DNA from: Candidatus Woesearchaeota archaeon | Lineage (GTDB): Archaea > Nanobdellota > Nanobdellia > SCGC-AAA011-G17 > PNOQ01 | Length of the DNA: 60,771 nt | NCBI GenBank assembly: GCA_964617925.1 | Contig: CAZTYO010000001.1 | Location: forward strand, 1 to 60,771 | Reading direction: 5' to 3' | Made by a program: the position numbers and the translations under genes | Notes under the pieces: generated by a model | Told to the model about the DNA's origin: nothing | What the model saw: the letters and a program-made list of their open reading frames with translations, nothing else | The model's database searches: none | Shown here: positions 15,176 to 54,254 of the stretch, piece by piece | Position numbering within the stretch: the first letter of the stretch is position 1 | Layout: each line of letters opens with the position of its first letter

Positions 15176-15289
15176 ATGGGTGAAATGGATAAATTTTTGA
15201 AGTATGCATTAAGGACAATATTTGTTTTACTTACATTATTTATATTATATTCCATGATTATGAAAGGGGTGAATTTATTTGTTAAATAA
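15176..15289 (+). CDS. 37-aa micro-ORF, single-TM peptide
   Basis: MGEMDKFLKYALRTIFVLLTLFILYSMIMKGVNLFVK. Not in the ORF track. Overlaps the next gene's TTG start by 11 nt. Confidence 0.35.
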   Translation: MGEMDKFLKYALRTIFVLLTLFILYSMIMKGVNLFVK

Positions 15290-16166
15290 AAAAGCAGGAA
15301 TGGCAATGACTATTGCAGGAATAATAATATTAGTTCTTGCTGCAGGAATTTTCCTATACTGGTTTCTTTTTGAATTTGGTCCTTATGCCGAACAAGGAGT
15401 TGGAAGAGAAGCATGTAGGGATAGTGTTTTTTTGAGAACTCAAGGAAAGATTGCAGGATATACCACTTTTAAAAATTTGGCTTGTGAAACTAGACAAAGA
15501 GAAATTAAAACTGTTGATGAAGATAATATTAAAAAAGCAATTTCTGAAGAAATGTATGATTGTTGGTATCAGTTTGGTGAAGGTAAAAAGGATTTTTTAA
15601 CTGATAGGGATTGGGGATTTGGAAATAATTGGTGTTTTATTTGTTCTAGGATTGATTTTGATGAAAGAGTTAAAGAAGAAATTTCTCAAGTAAATGGTTT
15701 GATGACTTATTTAGATACTACTCCAGTTCCATTTTATAATGGGTCTTTTTTTAATTATTTTTATGGTACTGAAGGAGAAATTGGTGGGCAAATTTTTGAA
15801 GATGACACCTATGCAACTAATGTTCCTCTTTATGTTGCTTTTTTTGGAGATAAGAAAGTAGGAAGTTGGCCAGGCCTTGGAGGAGAAGCAGTTAGCGATG
15901 TTGGGTGGACTGCACTTGTTGGTGGGATTGCAGGTTGTGTGATTTGGGGTACTCTTGGAGCTACTGGTGGAAGTATTGTTCCTATTGCTGGAACTGTTGC
16001 AGGTTTTATTGCTGGTTGTCTGGCTGGGGGTGATACTGGTTTTTATGCCGGGGCCTTAATTGGTGGTGGAAAGGCAGTTTATGATGTTGGAACCCATAAA
16101 AAAGGCTTTTATACTGGATTGTATGTTGGAAATAGTGATGAAATTTTGGAGTCGTGTAATCAATGA
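15279..16166 (+). CDS. pilin-like exported protein with Cys-containing middle domain and C-terminal glycine-zipper membrane segment
   Basis: N-terminus is LNKKA-GMAMTIAGIIILVLAAG (class III signal-like, TTG start; an alternative ATG lies at 15300). The C-terminus has GxxxG-dense hydrophobic repeats (VGGIAGCVIWGTLGATGGSIVPIAGTVAGFIAGCLAGG). Confidence 0.6.
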   Translation: MLNKKAGMAMTIAGIIILVLAAGIFLYWFLFEFGPYAEQGVGREACRDSVFLRTQGKIAGYTTFKNLACETRQREIKTVDEDNIKKAISEEMYDCWYQFGEGKKDFLTDRDWGFGNNWCFICSRIDFDERVKEEISQVNGLMTYLDTTPVPFYNGSFFNYFYGTEGEIGGQIFEDDTYATNVPLYVAFFGDKKVGSWPGLGGEAVSDVGWTALVGGIAGCVIWGTLGATGGSIVPIAGTVAGFIAGCLAGGDTGFYAGALIGGGKAVYDVGTHKKGFYTGLYVGNSDEILESCNQ

Positions 16167-16321
16167 ATAAAAAAGGAGACTTAGTTTGGGATCAGATTGG
16201 GAAATTTATTTTAGCAATTATATTGATGGTAATACTTGCTTTTATTCTTTGGATGCATAAAGATAATATTTTTGAAATGTTTGAAGATTTTAAAACTGTT
16301 TTTAGGTTTGGTGGTAGTTAG
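16163..16321 (+). CDS. 52-aa micro-ORF, pilin-like signal plus amphipathic Phe-rich tail
   Basis: MNKKGDLVWDQIGKFILAIILMVILAFILWMHKDNIFEMFEDFKTVFRFGGS. ATGA overlap with the upstream stop, and its TAG overlaps the next GTG start by 1 nt. Not in the ORF track. Confidence 0.45.
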   Translation: MNKKGDLVWDQIGKFILAIILMVILAFILWMHKDNIFEMFEDFKTVFRFGGS

Positions 16322-17499
16322 TGGAGACTACTATTAAACATATAATTTCGGGAATTTTTGTAGTTATGATTATAGTTTTGGTTGGTTTTTGGGGAAATAG
16401 TACTCTAACGACCTTGGCAAATCAATATGGTTGGGATCTTTTTATTGGTGCAGATGAAATTGCTGCTCAAAAAGATTCAAAAGAAATTTTTGATGATTTA
16501 ACTTTGTCTTTAACCGAATGTATGAGTGACGAAAGTGTTAATTGTTTTTGCATTAAGGAAGAGATAAATCTCCCCACCGATTTCAGACTTGAATTTTCTA
16601 AAAAAGAAAGTAGTACTGATGTTATTTTAAAGTCTTCAAGAGTTACATTGGATGAAAAAAATATTAATTTTATTCCTTGCCTTTTACTTGAACCTTGGCG
16701 TTCGTCAGTTAGTTTGAATGGTCCTTTGACTTTATTATACGGAAATGATAAGATAATTAATAAAGATTATGAAGGTTTTTTTGATTCTTCTTCTGTGTTT
16801 TATAAGATGGAAAATAATAATCTTTGTATTGTTTCTGTTGAAGTTGCTAATTCCTATGATATAATCAGTTTGGAATGTTCTGAAAAAGATGAATCTTTTG
16901 ATTCATGGATTGATGCAGCAATAGTTTTTGATTCTGAAATTGATAATGTCCAATTAAATCAATATGTTTCACTTGCATCAATAAATTCAAATTTTGTGAA
17001 TAATGCAGATAAAATAATTAAGGGAATAATTTATTTAGAATCTTATAATAATGGAATATTCACAAATAGAGAGATATTAAAACACCAAGGAACTGGAAAA
17101 TATTTTGAAGGAAAAGGAAAAGGAATATCTTCACTACAAGTCATTGAATCTGGTCCTGCATATGAAGCTATTGGATCTGATGAAGGTAGGAGAATTTTAA
17201 ATTTATATGGATATTCTGATGTTGATTTCAGTGATGATTATTTGTCTGCTCTTTTAATTAATGATCCAGAATTTTCTATTTCTCTTGCATATGTTTATTT
17301 ATCTAATTCTATTGAAGATTTTTCAAATGTTCAAAATACTAATGATTTGTTTAAGTTATGGTTAATTAATTATAATAAGGCGAGTTTGGAATATGGAGAT
17401 TATGTCAATAAGATAAATCTTTTAAATAGCAGAGTTTTTGATATTGGAATTGAAAATTCGCAAGTCATAAGTGAAGATCAGAATCCTCACAGAATTTAA
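16321..17499 (+). CDS. N-terminally anchored exported protein with C-terminal lytic-transglycosylase (SLT/GH23)-like motif set
   Basis: TM helix IISGIFVVMIIVLVGFW. The C-terminal region has YLES..N, GISSLQV, LINDPEFSISLAYVYL and WLINYNKA, in the order and approximate spacing of the SLT motifs ES / GLMQ / DPxxNIxxGxxYL / AYNAG. Confidence 0.45.
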   Translation: METTIKHIISGIFVVMIIVLVGFWGNSTLTTLANQYGWDLFIGADEIAAQKDSKEIFDDLTLSLTECMSDESVNCFCIKEEINLPTDFRLEFSKKESSTDVILKSSRVTLDEKNINFIPCLLLEPWRSSVSLNGPLTLLYGNDKIINKDYEGFFDSSSVFYKMENNNLCIVSVEVANSYDIISLECSEKDESFDSWIDAAIVFDSEIDNVQLNQYVSLASINSNFVNNADKIIKGIIYLESYNNGIFTNREILKHQGTGKYFEGKGKGISSLQVIESGPAYEAIGSDEGRRILNLYGYSDVDFSDDYLSALLINDPEFSISLAYVYLSNSIEDFSNVQNTNDLFKLWLINYNKASLEYGDYVNKINLLNSRVFDIGIENSQVISEDQNPHRI

Positions 17500-17741: not shown

Positions 17742-18107
17742 GTGATTATACTGAAAGTTGATAAAAAAGGTCAAAGTCTTTCAATGAATACAATTATAAT
17801 ATCTATTCTTGTGATATTAGTTTTAGTTATTGTTGCTGGATTTTTTGCAGGTGGGATGACTGGATTAATAAATAAGATGAAGGGAATTTTTGGAGCTCAG
17901 CCAATTGATGCTAGCCAGGCAGTAATGGAATGTAATGGCTATTGTCAGAGTTATGATATAACTGGTGTAGAAAATTACAAAACTAATTTTTGTGGTGATG
18001 TGCTTTTTGATTTAGATACTGATAATGATGGTAAGATGGATACAAGTAAAACTTGCTCTCAACTCGGAGTCATATGTCAAACGATTATAGATGAAGGGGG
18101 ATGTTAA
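17742..18107 (+). CDS. archaeal type IV pilin-like protein (class III signal peptide), Cys-rich globular domain
   Basis: VDKKGQ-SLSMNTIIISILVILVLVIVAG is a textbook KGQ cleavage context plus hydrophobic helix. Six Cys in the ectodomain. The exact start (GTG 17742) is uncertain. Confidence 0.75.
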   Translation: MIILKVDKKGQSLSMNTIIISILVILVLVIVAGFFAGGMTGLINKMKGIFGAQPIDASQAVMECNGYCQSYDITGVENYKTNFCGDVLFDLDTDNDGKMDTSKTCSQLGVICQTIIDEGGC

Positions 18108-24114: not shown

Positions 24115-24399
24115 ATGGCATATGTGATAGTGACTTTAAAAATAATGCCAAATAATCCCGAAGTAGATTTGAAAGAATTGGAATCAAAGATTAAAGTTTC
24201 ATTATCCGAATTTTTGAAAAAAAAAGAACCAGAAACTAAAGTAGAAATAACTCCTGTTGCATTTGGATTAAATTCAATTGATCTGACTTTTGCAGTAGAT
24301 GAAAGTCTGGGTTCGGCAGATCCTTTTGCAGAGTTAGTTTCAACTTTCGAAGAAGTTGCTTCTGCGGAAATAATCGATGCTAGACGGGCATTAGGTTAA
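24115..24399 (+). CDS. ef1b: translation elongation factor aEF-1 beta
   Basis: MAYVIVTLKIMPNNPEVDLKELE...VAFGLNSIDLTFAVDE...SAEI pattern and ~94 aa size. Start moved to the ATG at 24115. Confidence 0.75.
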   Translation: MAYVIVTLKIMPNNPEVDLKELESKIKVSLSEFLKKKEPETKVEITPVAFGLNSIDLTFAVDESLGSADPFAELVSTFEEVASAEIIDARRALG

Positions 24400-25275
24400 A
24401 ACATACATCAAGACATTTCCAAATATTAAACTTATTATTACTGCCAATATTATTGCAGGTAGAAAGGGGATTCCATCTTTTATTATTATTTTTTTAATTT
24501 TGTTTTTATTTAATAATTTAATTTGTTCTTTTGTAATTCCTTGTGTAGATGGTTTGTAAATTATTTGTTTATTTACTTTTATTTGATGAGTTATGTAATC
24601 TCCTTCTCTTAATTTATTTGAATTAATTGTTTTGATCATGCTTGCTTTTTCTATTGCAGAAATGGTTAACCAAAAATAAAATAAAACTAAAGGTAATGCA
24701 AGTATTATTATTGCCGAAAGTTTAAATTGAAAATTTTTAATCATTATCATACTTAATAATATTCCACTTATTGAAAAATAAATTGTTATTTTTTTTAGTT
24801 TTTTAATATTCTTGATTTTACTTTTTTCCTTATAATATTTTATTAATTTTTCTTTATTTTTTATTCCTAATATTATTCCTAAAATTATACTATATATTGC
24901 TCCAACAATCATTATGTTGATAAACAAAATTATTAAAAAATTCATATTTAAAGAAGGGTTAAAATATTTTAATAAGAATTCTGGATATTCTGGAATCGCT
25001 GCTCCAATCATCATTAATATTTTTGAATCTCCTCCTCCCCATTGTTTTGTGTAATACATTATATTTCCAATAGTGAAAAATATTCCAAAACCAATTAAAC
25101 TAATAATTAAGATATTCCAATTGTTCGATATTAGTGAAGAAAATAAATAAAAACTAAAGAGTGAGATTATTATACTAAAATTTAACCAATTTGGAACTTC
25201 TTTAGTTTTTATATCTGAATAAGTAGCTATAGTTAATCCTATTAATAATAATATTAAAATTATTGCTTCCATCAA
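24391..25275 (-). CDS. A24-family prepilin/preflagellin peptidase (PibD/FlaK/EppA-like)
   Basis: Polytopic. First catalytic Asp context is ATYSDIKTKEVPNWLN; the second is in WGGGDSKILMMIGA (GxGD). Confidence 0.8.
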   Translation of the reverse strand: MMEAIILILLLIGLTIATYSDIKTKEVPNWLNFSIIISLFSFYLFSSLISNNWNILIISLIGFGIFFTIGNIMYYTKQWGGGDSKILMMIGAAIPEYPEFLLKYFNPSLNMNFLIILFINIMIVGAIYSIILGIILGIKNKEKLIKYYKEKSKIKNIKKLKKITIYFSISGILLSMIMIKNFQFKLSAIIILALPLVLFYFWLTISAIEKASMIKTINSNKLREGDYITHQIKVNKQIIYKPSTQGITKEQIKLLNKNKIKKIIIKDGIPFLPAIILAVIISLIFGNVLMYVLT

Positions 25276-26590: not shown

Positions 26591-28009
26591 ATGGTTGAGG
26601 GTGAATTAAGATCAAAATTTAGTGAATTGTTTGGAAAGGTGATACATTTTATTATTATTATTGCCATTGTTATAATTATAGTTCTTGCCGTTATCTTTAT
26701 GGTCAATGTTTGGAGGACTGGCGCTGCATCAGGACTTGTAGATGAAGGGCTTATTGCACTTGATGAAACTGGAGATCCCATGAAAAAAGGAGTATTTGGT
26801 TTTTGGAATATTTTTTGGAATCCTTCTGAAATTTCAAATCAATTTAAATGGGAATCTGAAGTTGTAGAATATGAATCTGCTGTAGAATTAGGAGTGGATA
26901 TCTTAAAATTTGAAACTAATCAAAAGTTTTTATCTAATGAACCTATTCAAGTAACTGGGCTTGTTAAGGGAGCCAGCATTAATGATGAGGGTATGAATCT
27001 CAGATTTTTATGTGAATTGGATGATTACGAAGGAGAAAGTTTAGCAATGCCTTCTGAAATTGAAGTTCATGGAAAAGGAGTTACGAGAAATCAAGAAGTG
27101 AGTTGTTTTTTTTCAGATGGTATAGAGGTTTCAAAACAACAAGATTCGAAAAAAGTAACTTTAAAAGCAGAATATGATTTTTTAACACAATCTACTTATA
27201 GATTATATTTTATGGATTCTTTAATTTTGGATTCTTTCCTATCTCATGGTTTAGATCCTTTTATTAATAATCAATATAATGTTCAAGATGATTTATTATT
27301 AAAACCTACTAATGTTATGAGATCTCAAATAACTGAAGGTCCAATTGACCTTAGAATTAGTAGTGAAACTAGCCAACCTTTTTCCCAATCTAGTAATTTT
27401 GTTATGCTTAATGTTGATTTAGTTACAAAAGAAAGTGGAAATTTGAAACAAGTTAAATCTTTAAAATTATATGTTCCGTTTGCTGTAGAACTTTCTAGAG
27501 ATGTCAGATTCTGTGATTTTACTGATACTGGAGAGATAGATGGACAATTTAAAATTTATGAAATTAGTGAAATTTCCTTAAATGATAAAGTTAATGTTGA
27601 TTGTAGTAATAATCAGTTTTATGACATTGAAGAAGATTGTATTGAAGATTATTCAGTTGTTGAATTAAGATGTAGTTTTGGTGTTTCTCAATTACCTGGA
27701 GGGGACGTTTTTTTTAAGAGTTTAATAAAAGCCGAAGTAGAATATGTATTTGAAGTAGAAAAGAGAGAGGCTATTACAATTTTGCAAGCAGAGGATTCTT
27801 CTGATGTGTGTGATAGAATATTTGATGAAACTGACTGCATTTCTACAGTTGGTTGTATGCCTTCTTCCGCTGGAGAATTTGTATCTTGTACTTCTTGTCC
27901 TATCTCTTGGACAAATTGTGAATCTTATGAAGATGAAATATCTTGTGATAATGACTGGTGTGGTTTTGAAAATTGTAATTTTATTGAAGACTCTTGTTTT
28001 TCTTCCTGA
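26591..28009 (+). CDS. N-terminally anchored exported protein with Cys-rich C-terminus
   Basis: TM helix VIHFIIIIAIVIIIVLAVIFMV. Its middle region resembles the two downstream lipobox proteins (GPIDLRIS, AEYDF blocks). The last ~70 aa contain 13 Cys. Confidence 0.65.
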   Translation: MVEGELRSKFSELFGKVIHFIIIIAIVIIIVLAVIFMVNVWRTGAASGLVDEGLIALDETGDPMKKGVFGFWNIFWNPSEISNQFKWESEVVEYESAVELGVDILKFETNQKFLSNEPIQVTGLVKGASINDEGMNLRFLCELDDYEGESLAMPSEIEVHGKGVTRNQEVSCFFSDGIEVSKQQDSKKVTLKAEYDFLTQSTYRLYFMDSLILDSFLSHGLDPFINNQYNVQDDLLLKPTNVMRSQITEGPIDLRISSETSQPFSQSSNFVMLNVDLVTKESGNLKQVKSLKLYVPFAVELSRDVRFCDFTDTGEIDGQFKIYEISEISLNDKVNVDCSNNQFYDIEEDCIEDYSVVELRCSFGVSQLPGGDVFFKSLIKAEVEYVFEVEKREAITILQAEDSSDVCDRIFDETDCISTVGCMPSSAGEFVSCTSCPISWTNCESYEDEISCDNDWCGFENCNFIEDSCFSS

Positions 28010-39411: not shown

Positions 39412-41133
39412 ATGAAAAAAGTAATATTTGTATTTTGTCTCGCATTTGTTTTATTAGGTTCTCCTAATCTTGTTTCTGCAGAATTTAATCTTTCTCAAGG
39501 AACTGATTGGCTTTATGATCAAATGGATGTTGCAAATTGGAATAAACCTGTTGATGAAGTTGCACTTTCTGTTTTGGCTTTAAGAAATTTTGGTTATGAT
39601 GTTAGTAATGGTGTTGATCAATTAAATAGTGAACAATTGGGAGATAATTCTTGGGGTAATGCATATTATACTGCTCTTGCAACTCTTGCTTTACATAAAT
39701 CAGGTGAAAATGTTAGTGAGGAGGTTCGATGGTTATTAGATAATCGTGAAAGAGCAATGCAAAATGGGCAATGGTTAATTCAATTGATGACTGAAGGTTA
39801 TGGGACTTGTGGAATAACCTATAATGAAAATCCTTTTTATTTCGTTGTAAATAATACAATTATTGAAGAATCTCCTTCTGGTTTGTGTACTGGAGAAAAT
39901 TGGATAGATTTTGAAACTTGTGTTAAGGGAGGTTTGGCAGATGTTACTGAAACTCTTTCTATCGATTGTGTTGGTTTGTCAGTTACACCTTCTTTGATAT
40001 TCAAATCTTATGATAATTCTTATTATCTTGTTGATGAAGTTATGCCGCTTGATTTAGAAAATGGATGTTTCTATGGTGGCGCATATTCGTGTGATTGTGC
40101 TTATACTGGTTATGCTAGTTTTGTTTTGAATGAACTTGCAGAATCTTATGCAACTGTGCCTTATTTAGCAACTACTTGTACTGGAGATGCTCTTGGAAAT
40201 TCATTTTTATTATCTTTAACTAATGATGGCAAATATTCTACTTGGTTGAGAGACAATCAATTGGGCGGAAATTGGGAGAATAATAAATATACTACTGCTT
40301 TTGCTACGTATGTTTTGAGAAATTCAGCACAAGGGGGAGAATCTGTTACAACTGCAACAGATTGGATTGAATTGCACCAGCTTCCAGAAGGTTCTTGGGA
40401 TGGAAGTATAAAAACTACTGCGATGGTAATCTGGGGAGTTTTTAGTACTGAATTATCTCCGATTTCGTCTTCAACTACTGAATGTAATAATGGAGTTATT
40501 GAATATGATGAATCATGTGAAAATGGAATTCCCTGTACTGGTAATCTTGTTTGTCAAAATTGTACTTGCGTAACTCCTCAAACTTGTACTGAAATTAATG
40601 AGTGTATGTCTGGTACTGATTGTGCAGAGGGATATGATTGTAGTTTTGCAAGTTGTACTTGTGAGCCACTTCTTCTTGAATGTACTTCTGATTTACAATG
40701 TGAACTCGGTTTTTATTGTAATGAAATAACAAATACTTGTGAGCGTAGTGAATCTCCCGGATGTAGTTCTGATTCAGATTGTGATGATGGTTATCATTGT
40801 AATCTTCAAACTGGAAATTGTGAAGTTGATGAGGAAAGTAGTAATTGGATAGCATGGTTAATCTCTATAATTGTTATACTTGCAGGTTTAGCTGCTGGCT
40901 ATTATTATTATATGAAATATAAGAAAAAACCTATGGCTAAAACTCCTTCATTTAGTGGAGGTTTACCTACTCAAGGTCAACCTAAGAAACCAAATTATCC
41001 TGTTGCTAGGCAAGCTATTTCCCGTCCTACGAGTAAAAAATATGCTCCAAGTAGAAAGGACCATAAATTAGAAAGTGAACTTGATGAATCTATAAAAAAG
41101 GCCAAGGATCTTTTGAAGGGCAAGGGGCGATAA
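39412..41133 (+). CDS. surface protein: signal peptide, prenyltransferase/terpene-cyclase-like alpha/alpha-toroid repeats, Cys-rich modules, TM anchor, basic tail
   Basis: Repeats are DNSWGNAYYTALATLAL, GGNWENNKYTTAFATYVL and EGSWDGSIKTTAMVIWG. Several C..D.(D/Q)C..G(Y/F).C......C modules span aa 357-471. TM helix WIAWLISIIVILAGLAAGYYYY. Confidence 0.6.
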   Translation: MKKVIFVFCLAFVLLGSPNLVSAEFNLSQGTDWLYDQMDVANWNKPVDEVALSVLALRNFGYDVSNGVDQLNSEQLGDNSWGNAYYTALATLALHKSGENVSEEVRWLLDNRERAMQNGQWLIQLMTEGYGTCGITYNENPFYFVVNNTIIEESPSGLCTGENWIDFETCVKGGLADVTETLSIDCVGLSVTPSLIFKSYDNSYYLVDEVMPLDLENGCFYGGAYSCDCAYTGYASFVLNELAESYATVPYLATTCTGDALGNSFLLSLTNDGKYSTWLRDNQLGGNWENNKYTTAFATYVLRNSAQGGESVTTATDWIELHQLPEGSWDGSIKTTAMVIWGVFSTELSPISSSTTECNNGVIEYDESCENGIPCTGNLVCQNCTCVTPQTCTEINECMSGTDCAEGYDCSFASCTCEPLLLECTSDLQCELGFYCNEITNTCERSESPGCSSDSDCDDGYHCNLQTGNCEVDEESSNWIAWLISIIVILAGLAAGYYYYMKYKKKPMAKTPSFSGGLPTQGQPKKPNYPVARQAISRPTSKKYAPSRKDHKLESELDESIKKAKDLLKGKGR

Positions 41134-42449: not shown

Positions 42450-42834
42450 CCTGTTGTTCTTTAGCACGCGTTTCCATTATCATTCTTTTTAGTGCCATAT
42501 CATATTGATGTAATTTTGCTAAAACATCATTTAACATTTCTTCAATACTTCCTGATGAAAGTTTATTTGTCTCTGGTTCAATTATTTCAATTGAAGAAGG
42601 CATAAAGTTAAAACAGAAATCTGTTAATTTTTTAAAATTATTAAATTCTAATTCAAATTCAGTAAATGTTGACCACATTTCTTTCACTAACTTTGCTTCT
42701 GCAGTATCATGATTTAGTTTTTTTATTTCTTCGTCTTTTTCTATCAATTCTACTACTTGTCTCATAGTTTTTTCCACATGTTCTTTTGGCATGCCCACTA
42801 TTTCTATTATTGTGTTAATTTTTATCTTTTCCAT
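42421..42834 (-). CDS. hypothetical cytoplasmic protein
   Basis: 137-aa acidic ORF that overlaps both neighbours. No motif recognised. Confidence 0.5.
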   Translation of the reverse strand: MEKIKINTIIEIVGMPKEHVEKTMRQVVELIEKDEEIKKLNHDTAEAKLVKEMWSTFTEFELEFNNFKKLTDFCFNFMPSSIEIIEPETNKLSSGSIEEMLNDVLAKLHQYDMALKRMIMETRAKEQQAKKTEEEEK

Positions 42835-44278
42835 TTTCTAAACCTAATTGAATGATTACTAATATCAATATGAAACAAAAGAAGTAAATTGCCATATTCA
42901 TTGATTTTTTGCCAGTTGATTCATAAACAATATTACTTGTTGTGTTATTATTGTTGTTTATAATTGTTTCTACGTTGTTTTCTTCTTCCATTAAAGATAC
43001 TATTTCTTCTTCTGAATATCCGATTTTGATTATTTTACATAGTTCTTTGGAAAATCCTTCAACCCGAAAATTTTTTTTTGTTTTATTGTCTAATCCCTCC
43101 AATATCATTGAATAGCTCCCGTTTTGATATTTTTCGTTACAGTTTGGGTATAGTTGAATTGGAATGGTTAGTTCATATTCAGTATATCTTGAGTTTAAGT
43201 TTATCTTTGTTGTTTTTGAAATTTTTTCATTATTCTGAGAAATGACATACGCATTTATTGAGTTTTTTGACGTATTTCCTTTATAAATTACAACTTTCAT
43301 TCTGATGCTGTCTCCGAATTCAGACCTATTATCTGAGCCTATGTATATTTTTTCTATATTCAACTTTGATTTTTTACTTTTTTCTGAGTCATCTGGATTC
43401 TTTTCTCCTGGACTTGGTTTTGAAAACCTCCATAAGTTATTTATTAATGACCAAGAGTTTCCTTCTTTTGAATCACTATATGAGAGTTTATCTAATTGAT
43501 TATCATTTTTGTCAAATAGTGTGATTTCTTCTAACTCTTTATTATTTAGAAAACCAGATAATCCATTTGTGTAAACTACCAAATATCCTTCTTTTTCTAT
43601 TATTGTTTGATAAGTAGTTGTTTCTGAGATTGTAATGTTTCTTCCAAATTCATCTTTTAATTTTGCTCCTTTTAGATCAACTGTTTCTCCTAGGTTGTAA
43701 AGTTCAATCCATTCTCCTTCTGGCATGGGGGCATCATCATGTCCTTCCGGATCCGGTAAGAATTCATTTATTCTTATGTTCATGAATGTTTGAATAGTAT
43801 TATTGTTTCCAGGTGATTGAATGCATTCAATCCATCTGCTTTGTAGTAGACATAAACTTTTGTTGTTTCCATTTGCTCCCCATTCTGGATAATAATGAGT
43901 AGCATCAATTATTGTGTTGTTGTTTAGGATTATTATTAGATCTCCAGTATTTCCTAATTGATTTCCAATTGTTGCTCCAACTGAGTATACTGCGGAATTT
44001 ATATTTGAATAATTAAATCCCTCTTCTACAATGAGGTGGTAATTGTTGTTTCCTTCTTTTAATAATTCTAGGGCATCTTCTGAAGTTGTATCTCTTATTG
44101 ATAAGTTTGTAATGAATTGAAACTCATCAGAATATATTTCAATATATTCTTTGTTATTGTCTGATCCAGATGGATTGTACATTATTTCATTTATGAATGT
44201 GGTTGCATAAGTACTGTGAATTAAAGAAAATAGAATTAAAATAAAAATTACTGTTGTGATACTTTTGTTTTTTTCCAT
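42815..44278 (-). CDS. surface protein with two lamin-tail domains (LTD), N-terminal signal and C-terminal TM anchor
   Basis: FINEIMYNPSGSDNNKEYIEIYS and RINEFLPDPEGHDD...GEWIELYNLG are the LTD hallmark, seen twice. C-terminal helix MAIYFFCFILILVIIQLG. Confidence 0.65.
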   Translation of the reverse strand: MEKNKSITTVIFILILFSLIHSTYATTFINEIMYNPSGSDNNKEYIEIYSDEFQFITNLSIRDTTSEDALELLKEGNNNYHLIVEEGFNYSNINSAVYSVGATIGNQLGNTGDLIIILNNNTIIDATHYYPEWGANGNNKSLCLLQSRWIECIQSPGNNNTIQTFMNIRINEFLPDPEGHDDAPMPEGEWIELYNLGETVDLKGAKLKDEFGRNITISETTTYQTIIEKEGYLVVYTNGLSGFLNNKELEEITLFDKNDNQLDKLSYSDSKEGNSWSLINNLWRFSKPSPGEKNPDDSEKSKKSKLNIEKIYIGSDNRSEFGDSIRMKVVIYKGNTSKNSINAYVISQNNEKISKTTKINLNSRYTEYELTIPIQLYPNCNEKYQNGSYSMILEGLDNKTKKNFRVEGFSKELCKIIKIGYSEEEIVSLMEEENNVETIINNNNNTTSNIVYESTGKKSMNMAIYFFCFILILVIIQLGLENGKDKN

Positions 44279-54180: not shown

Positions 54181-54254
54181 TGGGGCGAGAGGGATTTGAA
54201 CCCCCGACACCTAGATCTTCAGTCTAGTGCTCTCCCAGGCTGAGCTACCGCCCC
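54181..54254 (-). tRNA. tRNA-Phe (anticodon GAA)
   Basis: The reverse complement is GGGGCGGTAGCTCAGCCTGGGAGAGCACTAGACTGAAGATCTAGGTGTCGGGGGTTCAAATCCCTCTCGCCCCA. It folds as a cloverleaf: 7-bp acceptor stem, GCTC/GAGC D stem, CTAGA/TCTAG anticodon stem with loop CTGAAGA, and a TTCAAAT T-loop. CCA is not encoded. Confidence 0.9.

Follow-up and report, generated by a model that had tools for sequence, protein, structure and literature searches.

A pilin-like protein with a candidate divergent lysozyme-like domain in the type-IV-filament operon of a Woesearchaeota archaeon

Why should an archaeon encode, in the middle of a pilus operon, a protein that recalls the enzymes which cut peptidoglycan? 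The question is raised by a 392-residue exported protein (the target, also P0001) encoded in a stretch of 60,771 nucleotides from a Candidatus Woesearchaeota archaeon (contig CAZTYO010000001.1, positions 1 to 60,771; the window hereafter). A preliminary description, made from the letters of the DNA, had recognised in its C-terminal half four blocks resembling the SLT/GH23 motifs of lytic transglycosylases and suggested that they may serve to attack the cell wall of a partner or host.

The best explanation of the data, which we put forward tentatively, is a two-module pilin-like protein displaying a divergent lysozyme-like domain aimed at the cell wall of a partner. The ATPase and the membrane platform of the operon would insert the N-terminal carrier, like a minor pilin, into the pilus, at its tip or at the adjoining cell surface. 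The C-terminal domain would then be presented to the wall of the partner or host, where Glu240, acting as acid catalyst, would cut glycan strands and open the wall locally. We infer incorporation into the pilus, catalysis and a foreign target; the substrate may be murein, pseudomurein, a chitin-like polymer or another glycan. The C-terminal half itself is most likely, to judge from its structural model, a very divergent GH23/SLT-like lysozyme domain with Glu240, placed at a helix end, as its only acid catalyst.

Two modules and an invariant Glu-Ser pair

The positions of both modules and of the blocks discussed below are collected in Table 1. The N-terminal module belongs to a carrier family with about 30 homologs of ~200 residues (mostly 170–255), which is characterised by a hydrophobic helix at the N-terminus and by conserved cysteines; the target module has six Cys, counting C186, the first residue of the C-terminal part. 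The family has no significant match in Pfam or in the Protein Data Bank (PDB), and its hidden Markov model (HMM) also matches the small KKG pilins encoded in these operons, at their N-termini. In the AlphaFold model of the ortholog P0003 the carrier is formed by two helices (residues 5–35 and 44–69) and nine strands over residues 89–173, with a predicted local distance difference test score (pLDDT) mostly above 90. The predicted combination of helix and beta domain corresponds to the general shape of archaeal pilins.

The C-terminal domain has a very narrow distribution. A word-indexed search gave one ortholog; of 1.84 billion representatives, searched exhaustively, only 3 have the domain, the query included, and a profile search added no further orthologs. 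Neither scans of metagenome and viral contigs, made with the C-terminal profile, nor a tblastn search of phage genomes gave any match. Homologs of the protein occupying this place in the operon (the slot) comprise, among the same representatives, about 30 with the carrier only, one fusion to an SLT domain and the three bearing the present domain. Together with scans of other collections, five orthologs were assembled, belonging to three lineages (P0001/P0002, P0003/L003 and L089), and the identity of their C-terminal domains between lineages is 35–48%.

The pair Glu240-Ser241 is the same in every ortholog. Its variation had been named in the preliminary description as grounds for dropping the claim, and the pair is unchanged in 5/5 sequences, so the claim stands on this point. 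The invariance taken by itself is weak evidence, because about one quarter of all positions of the domain are invariant among the orthologs.

More can be said about the location of this pair. The AlphaFold model of residues 186–392, built on a 4-sequence alignment (pLDDT 70.3, predicted template modelling score 0.70), consists of three helices, a beta hairpin and seven further helices, and Glu240 is the last residue of the third helix (229–240). A second run with full-length P0003 (pLDDT 79.8), the domain of which is ~35% identical to that of the target, reproduced these secondary-structure elements position by position, with the Glu two residues before the end of helix 228–243. In both models the ES pair is therefore predicted to lie at a helix end, as in SLT domains. 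The hallmark of the lysozyme superfamily is a catalytic Glu that closes a helix at its C-terminal end, with a small beta sheet coming next; examples are Glu35 of hen egg-white lysozyme, Glu11 of T4 lysozyme, Glu73 of goose egg-white lysozyme and Glu478 of Slt70.

Structure searches with the C-terminal model point in the same direction. All Foldseek matches in the PDB with a template modelling (TM) score of at least 0.3 are lysozyme-like: the GH23 chitinase 3w6d and its companion entries 3w6e, 3w6b and 3w6f, the endolysin gp46 of phage KTN6 (8p8e), Slt of Pseudomonas aeruginosa (5ohu) and MltE (3t36). The remaining PDB matches are mostly haemoglobins with TM of ~0.2 or lower. The closest solved structure is 3w6d, the catalytic domain of the chitinase from Ralstonia sp. 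A-471 with a goose-type lysozyme fold of family GH23 (TM 0.40 by query length and 0.51 by target length, root-mean-square deviation 6.0 Å over 186 columns). Among the viral structures of BFVD the top probabilities are 0.96 (TM 0.61), 0.87 (TM 0.55) and 0.72, the best TM by target length being 0.62, and every named match with TM of at least 0.3 is a phage lysin, a GH19 protein, an LT_GEWL protein or the phi29 wall hydrolase. On the strength of these models a lysozyme-like fold of the C-terminal domain seems probable, though well short of certain.

Indirect support by architecture comes from another lineage. The 484-residue protein P0011 (L001:384-1838, from Logan SRR26275510, on a contig of just 1.9 kb) has a carrier matching that of the target (hhalign probability 98.3%, E = 2e-14) with a shared CS-x-KD linker, and it is likewise preceded by a small gene, of 53 codons, with a one-base overlap. 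Its carrier is followed by a Cys-rich stretch (24 Cys in the whole protein) and then, over about residues 260–484, by a domain with QES, GIMQIN, N-x-x-x-G-x-x-L-L and AYNG motifs. This domain matches Pfam PF01464 with E = 5.6e-4, at 19.9 bits just below the cut-off of 21.3 bits, and our own SLT HMM with 8e-5; homolog and PDB sequence searches with it were both empty. The same carrier thus bears a lytic-transglycosylase-type domain in another lineage, and this lends support to the proposed role of the target by analogy of architecture and not by homology. No earlier description of a fusion between a pilin-like carrier and a lytic-transglycosylase domain has come to our notice.

Evidence against a lysozyme-like domain and the alternatives

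A considerable number of results weigh against this assignment, the first group of them being drawn from the sequence. The four blocks are present in open reading frame 16321-17499 as described and follow the SLT order; their spacing, which had been called comparable to that of Slt70-type enzymes, is longer, with 28/47/36 residues in the target as against 15/29/30 in E. coli Slt70. The blocks were scored with position-specific score matrices derived from 73 SLT domains (the C-domain of E. coli Slt70, EmtA and 71 phage SLT domains), and the best ordered chain was compared with 2000 shuffles. The best chain of the target is precisely the four blocks noticed by eye and reaches 18.1 bits versus 6.1 +/- 4.5 bits in shuffled sequences (p = 0.0105), with block III supplying 10.1 of the 18.1 bits. 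Since the match had been chosen by eye from a 60-kb window, p = 0.01 fails multiple testing. Three orthologs give non-significant values of 0.17, 0.16 and 0.21; P0011, used as a positive control, gives p < 0.0005.

Profile methods lead to the same result. Pfam yields, at E <= 1, neither SLT nor any other family in the target, its last 160 residues or three orthologs, so that the PF01464 search proposed for the C-terminal region came out negative. NCBIfam, PHROGs and PDB searches (phmmer and hmmsearch) give no lysozyme or SLT family, and alignment of the ortholog C-terminal profile by hhalign with Slt70 plus EmtA, as well as with the 73-sequence SLT profile, has a probability below 1%. With our own SLT HMM, all filters disabled and the search space set to one, the target scores 0.5 bits (p ~0.03) and P0003 has p ~0.16. 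Block III is the sole stretch which hmmsearch and hhalign align to SLT profiles. No match to SLT/GH23 (PF01464) reaches the gathering threshold or significance in profile-profile comparison, and by its sequence the target is not a demonstrable member of this family. Of the motif quartet proposed earlier, the presence stands and the family membership does not; the likeness of the target to SLT is barely above chance.

Individual residues of the blocks give a mixed picture. In block II G268 and L272 are invariant, and its alignment with GLMQ needs an extra residue; the proposed Gln varies as Q/N/E/E/E over the five orthologs, whereas it is present in 100% of the 73 SLT sequences. The Asp and Pro of block III are not conserved. 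In block IV, which lies at the end of helix 340–352 in the P0001 model, W347, L348 and Y351 are invariant, but the Asn of AYNxG reads N/H/N/N/H and Gly occupies the motif position in 2/5 orthologs; in the SLT alignment the Tyr and the Gly of this motif are both found in 100% of sequences. Of the suggested parallels to GLMQ and AYNAG, the tyrosine is thus kept throughout, and the Gln, the Asn and the Gly vary.

The second group of results concerns the models. Only 2 of the 5 models of the C-terminal domain converged, the other three having a pLDDT of 36–41, and the hairpin with the 'GLMQ' lobe stays below 50 in both runs. Foldseek with the C-terminal model finds no match at E <= 0.001 in either the PDB or BFVD. 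The match to 3w6d is not significant (E 6.7, probability 0.14, identity 13%), and the probabilities of the PDB matches are only 0.07–0.14. With the full-length P0003 model the search returned noise only (galectins, hexokinase; TM < 0.2). The placement of Glu240 in a catalytic position is a matter of predicted secondary structure alone. In the terms of the preliminary description, which had asked for a lysozyme-like fold in profile or structure searches, profiles gave none, and structures gave a partial answer in which the weak matches with TM of at least 0.3 are all lysozyme-superfamily glycosidases and none reaches E <= 0.001. Finally, the C-terminal domains of P0011 and the target have no detectable similarity (hhalign probability < 1%, no alignment in motif register).

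These results, together with the restriction of the domain to one narrow clade, can be accounted for if the C-terminal domain is unrelated to lysozymes in evolution and in mechanism, being an orphan module made up mostly of helices. The motifs would then be due to chance, the AlphaFold and Foldseek signal would be an artefact of the shallow alignment, and the role of the module would lie in adhesion, host recognition or pilus assembly. The failed models, the negative profile and profile-profile searches, the non-significant block chains of the orthologs and the variable Gln and Asn-Gly are all as expected of such a module. It is harder to reconcile with the matches from two independent libraries, which above TM 0.3 belong to the lysozyme superfamily and to no other fold class, with the secondary structure reproduced in a second ortholog, with the invariant Glu-Ser at a helix end preceding a hairpin, and with the SLT-like domain borne by the same carrier in P0011. 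We regard an unrelated module as possible but rather doubtful.

The same fold-level signal would also be obtained if the domain has a lysozyme-like fold that has lost cleavage and acts as a glycan-binding, lectin-like head gripping the wall polysaccharide of the partner. The degenerate substrate-binding motifs would agree with this, as would the poor prediction of the small beta lobe, which in GH23 enzymes makes up one side of the cleft; moreover, minor pilins of bacterial episymbionts bind their hosts through lectin-like C-terminal domains (PMC11623550). However, Glu240, the one residue on which catalysis depends, and its partner Ser have remained invariant although the lineages differ at more than half of the positions, and P0011 retains the full ES/GIMQ/AYNG set that its sequence would lead one to expect of an active enzyme. 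A purely binding head therefore appears unlikely to us, and an active, very divergent lysozyme-like domain is preferred.

One more point against the proposed arrangement concerns the carrier. A [KR]x[GA] leader (of MKKG- or MNKKG-type) is present in 15/34 representatives of the carrier family, but the clade of the target is without a [KR]G leader: P0001 starts M/V-ETTIKHIISG... at the hydrophobic segment, and P0003, L003 and P0011 likewise begin directly there. For this reason processing of the carrier and its assembly into the pilus are putative. Judging from their N-termini, the leaderless carriers may bypass the class III signal peptidase.

Two features of the C-terminal domain are mentioned separately. 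Its last residues form an invariant P-H-x-I-COOH motif, which falls within the low-confidence tail of both AlphaFold models; the sequence could represent a sorting, docking or processing signal. Residues 255–311 (17083-17253) match both jacalin repeats of PDB 2jz4 with E = 0.32 as a single protein and 0.014 as a 4-sequence profile. This match was judged to be due to chance because Pfam Jacalin is negative, only ~57 residues of the jacalin domain are covered and AlphaFold predicts helices over part of the stretch. The stretch lies between ES and block III, is longer than in canonical SLT domains and is poorly modelled. Alternatively, the similarity could hint at an inserted glycan-binding element.

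The pilus operon and its slot protein

The target had been described as an exported protein of an archaeal pilus operon, and this is borne out by the assembly ATPase, the membrane platform, the pilin-like genes with KKG leaders and the Peptidase_A24 protein found around it (Table 1). The genes follow in the order ATPase, platform, 295-residue protein, 52-residue protein, slot gene and about eight small proteins, most of them with pilin-like N-termini, and then RPA, RadA and Peptidase_A24. The operon order is kept in L003, L086 and L089, so the target shares its type-IV-filament context with syntenic loci. L091 and L093, with a platform identity of 44%, have no slot gene and are uninformative.

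Table 1. Coordinates of the target, its modules and blocks, and the genes of the pilus operon in the window.
Feature	Position	Strand	Remarks
Target open reading frame, 392 residues	16321..17499	+	GTG start shares one base with the TAG of the 52-residue gene; public calls use the same start
N-terminal pilin-like module, residues 1-185	16321..16875	+	hydrophobic helix at residues 8-25, second helix, disulfide-rich beta-sandwich
Lineage-specific C-terminal domain, residues 186-392 plus stop	16876..17499	+	candidate divergent lysozyme-like module
YLESYNN, residues 238-244	17032-17052	+	block I
Glu240-Ser241, candidate catalytic Glu	17038..17043	+	invariant in 5/5 orthologs
KGISSLQVIESG, residues 267-278, proposed GLMQ equivalent	17119..17154	+	block II
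LLINDPEFSISLAYVYL, residues 311-327, best SLT-like block	17251..17301	+	block III
WLINYNKA, residues 347-354, proposed AYNxG equivalent	17359..17382	+	block IV
Invariant C-terminal P-H-x-I-COOH, residues 389-392	17485..17496	+	5/5 orthologs, preceded by N/S/T
Type-IV-filament assembly ATPase, 760 residues	10727..13009	+	Pfam T2SSE 4.4e-15
Polytopic membrane platform protein, 708 residues	13010..15136	+	weak Pfam T2SSF, 3.6e-4
Conserved 295-residue membrane protein, pilin-like N-terminus	15279..16166	+	listed open reading frame
52-residue pilin-like gene (MNKKG-D...; MNKKGDLVWDQIGKF...FRFGGS), unlisted open reading frame	16163..16321	+	class III signal-peptide-like leader
Downstream gene, 70 residues	17504..17716	+	called in public assemblies; homologous small open reading frames in L002, L089
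Cys-rich pilin, 121 residues, class III signal peptide (KKGQ-SLSMNTIII...)	17742..18107	+	listed open reading frame
Six small proteins, KKG or hydrophobic pilin-like N-termini: 56, 159, 135, 171, 191, 259 residues	18140..21059	+	
Prepilin/class III signal peptidase	24391..25275	-	Pfam Peptidase_A24 8.5e-13

The best NCBIfam matches of the ATPase are FlaI (3e-38) and TadA (4.8e-34), neither of which reaches the family cut-off. The platform protein is 73% identical to its counterpart in the syntenic operon of L003 and 58% to that of L086. The 295-residue protein has an ortholog in L003 that starts KKG-EMAM, and the same position is occupied in L086 and L089. The 52-residue gene, which public assemblies also call, overlaps the upstream reading frame by ATGA and the GTG of the target by one base in TAGTG. 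Such a small gene with a one-base overlap precedes the slot gene also in L001, L002, L003, L086 and L089, and this recurrence in the sequences suggests conserved translational coupling to the slot gene. The 121-residue Cys-rich protein, kept in L003 and L089, has a weak match to the WSC domain (E = 0.002) and is likely the major pilin. The six small proteins downstream of it are collinear in L003, L086 and L089. L003 and L086 have the peptidase gene at the syntenic position as well.

This arrangement also bears on the possibility that the enzyme works on the envelope of the archaeon itself and clears the way for its own pilus in the manner of VirB1. A location within the pilus operon, with translational coupling, is the arrangement of the lytic transglycosylases associated with bacterial machines. 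But most homologous operons run with a slot protein of ~200 residues that lacks the domain; in L086, for example, the slot is filled by P0007, a protein of 197 residues which consists of the carrier only. The C-terminal domain is hence a lineage-specific addition, dispensable for the machine and not needed for assembly. In addition, no genes for synthesis of wall glycans were seen in the annotated parts of the 60-kb window, and to our knowledge DPANN archaea do not make murein or pseudomurein. Action on the own envelope is thus very improbable, and a domain directed outwards, to the wall of a partner, remains the preferred explanation.

Comparison of the slots leads to a broader proposal. In DPANN archaea of this clade the slot subunit may be an exchangeable carrier for wall-degrading cargo, namely an SLT domain in P0011, a fast-evolving orphan lysozyme-like domain in the target and none in most lineages. 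The pilus would in this case work as an enzymatic drill on the wall of a bacterial (murein) or pseudomurein host, and the type of cargo would report the kind of host. We offer it as a speculation that is rather unlikely to hold in full. When scanned with our own SLT HMM, neither the window nor the syntenic loci gave an open reading frame with an SLT domain.

The window as a whole is archaeal and has a G+C content of 26–32%; it encodes RadA/Rad51, an RPA-like protein and a helicase-nuclease of Hef type. From the low G+C, the small size of the proteins and the gene content we infer a DPANN-type archaeon. Elsewhere in the window, a 486-residue protein (42815-44278, minus strand) combines an N-terminal membrane segment with a Lamin Tail Domain (PF00932, 1e-15) and is possibly another surface or adhesion protein. 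The open reading frames 39412-41133 and 26591-28009, both on the plus strand and of 573 and 472 residues, match no Pfam family at E <= 0.001. A single tRNA gene (54181-54254, minus strand) is the only Rfam match of the window at gathering thresholds.

Relation to known systems

Lytic transglycosylases associated with bacterial machines include VirB1 of type IV secretion, EtgA/IagB of type III secretion, FlgJ, PleA of Caulobacter and BfpH of the bundle-forming pilus. The target resembles them in its location inside a filament operon, in a Glu-Ser pair at a helix end with the Glu as candidate single catalytic residue, and in the order of its blocks and the predicted helix-hairpin-helix layout. 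It differs from them in the absence of detectable sequence membership and in the degenerate GLMQ and AYNxG motifs. Whereas the bacterial proteins are separate periplasmic enzymes, the target is fused to a pilin-like carrier. Its substrate would moreover be foreign, because the producer is an archaeon without a known glycan wall.

The fusion finds a close parallel in modular minor type IV pilins, such as PilB and PilC of Streptococcus sanguinis. Saccharibacteria have the modular minor pilins PilX1 and PilX2 (PMC11623550). Similarly to these proteins, the target combines a pilin-like N-terminal module with a C-terminal domain that would be the functional one and is encoded among minor pilins; the proposed seat at the pilus tip and the contact with a host would also be shared with those of the ultrasmall episymbionts. 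However, the known modular minor pilins are bacterial and their cargo is lectin-like, a beta-propeller or a vWA domain, while the target is archaeal and its cargo is putatively enzymatic. Its carrier belongs to an uncharacterised archaeal family that is, in the clade of the target, leaderless.

The premise of the preliminary description that an archaeon normally has no peptidoglycan to breach needs to be qualified. Proteins with lytic-transglycosylase domains have already been reported in Pacearchaeota and Woesearchaeota (PMC8204110) and are known in DPANN archaea (PMC10936187). The extracellular SLT proteins of family fam00969 reach up to 3000 residues and have been interpreted as pointing to interaction with hosts that possess a wall (PMC8204110). 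The target has in common with them that it is an extracellular DPANN protein with a putative domain for the cleavage of murein-type glycans. It is, at 392 residues, not one of these very large proteins; moreover, in fam00969 proteins the SLT domain can be recognised, and neither a fusion to pilins nor a location in pilus operons is described for them, whereas the target is fused to a pilin-like module and its domain is unrecognisable by sequence. A survey of archaeal type-IV filaments does not mention transglycosylase or lysozyme accessories.

Ultrasmall DPANN archaea are uncultured and their surface proteins mostly unannotated; little is understood of the ways in which they fasten to a host and breach it, or of whether bacteria, and not archaea, are the hosts of some of them. 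If the present explanation is true, a pilin-like carrier with a wall-cleaving domain would provide a concrete and testable mechanism. The cargo found at this slot of the operon would then be a genomic marker from which the envelope type of the host could be predicted in metagenomes, and the idea of modular minor pilins would come to include archaea besides bacteria, and enzymes besides binding modules. Should the domain turn out not to be lysozyme-like, the slot protein would still represent a conserved, hitherto unannotated component of the pilus operon with lineage-specific add-on domains.

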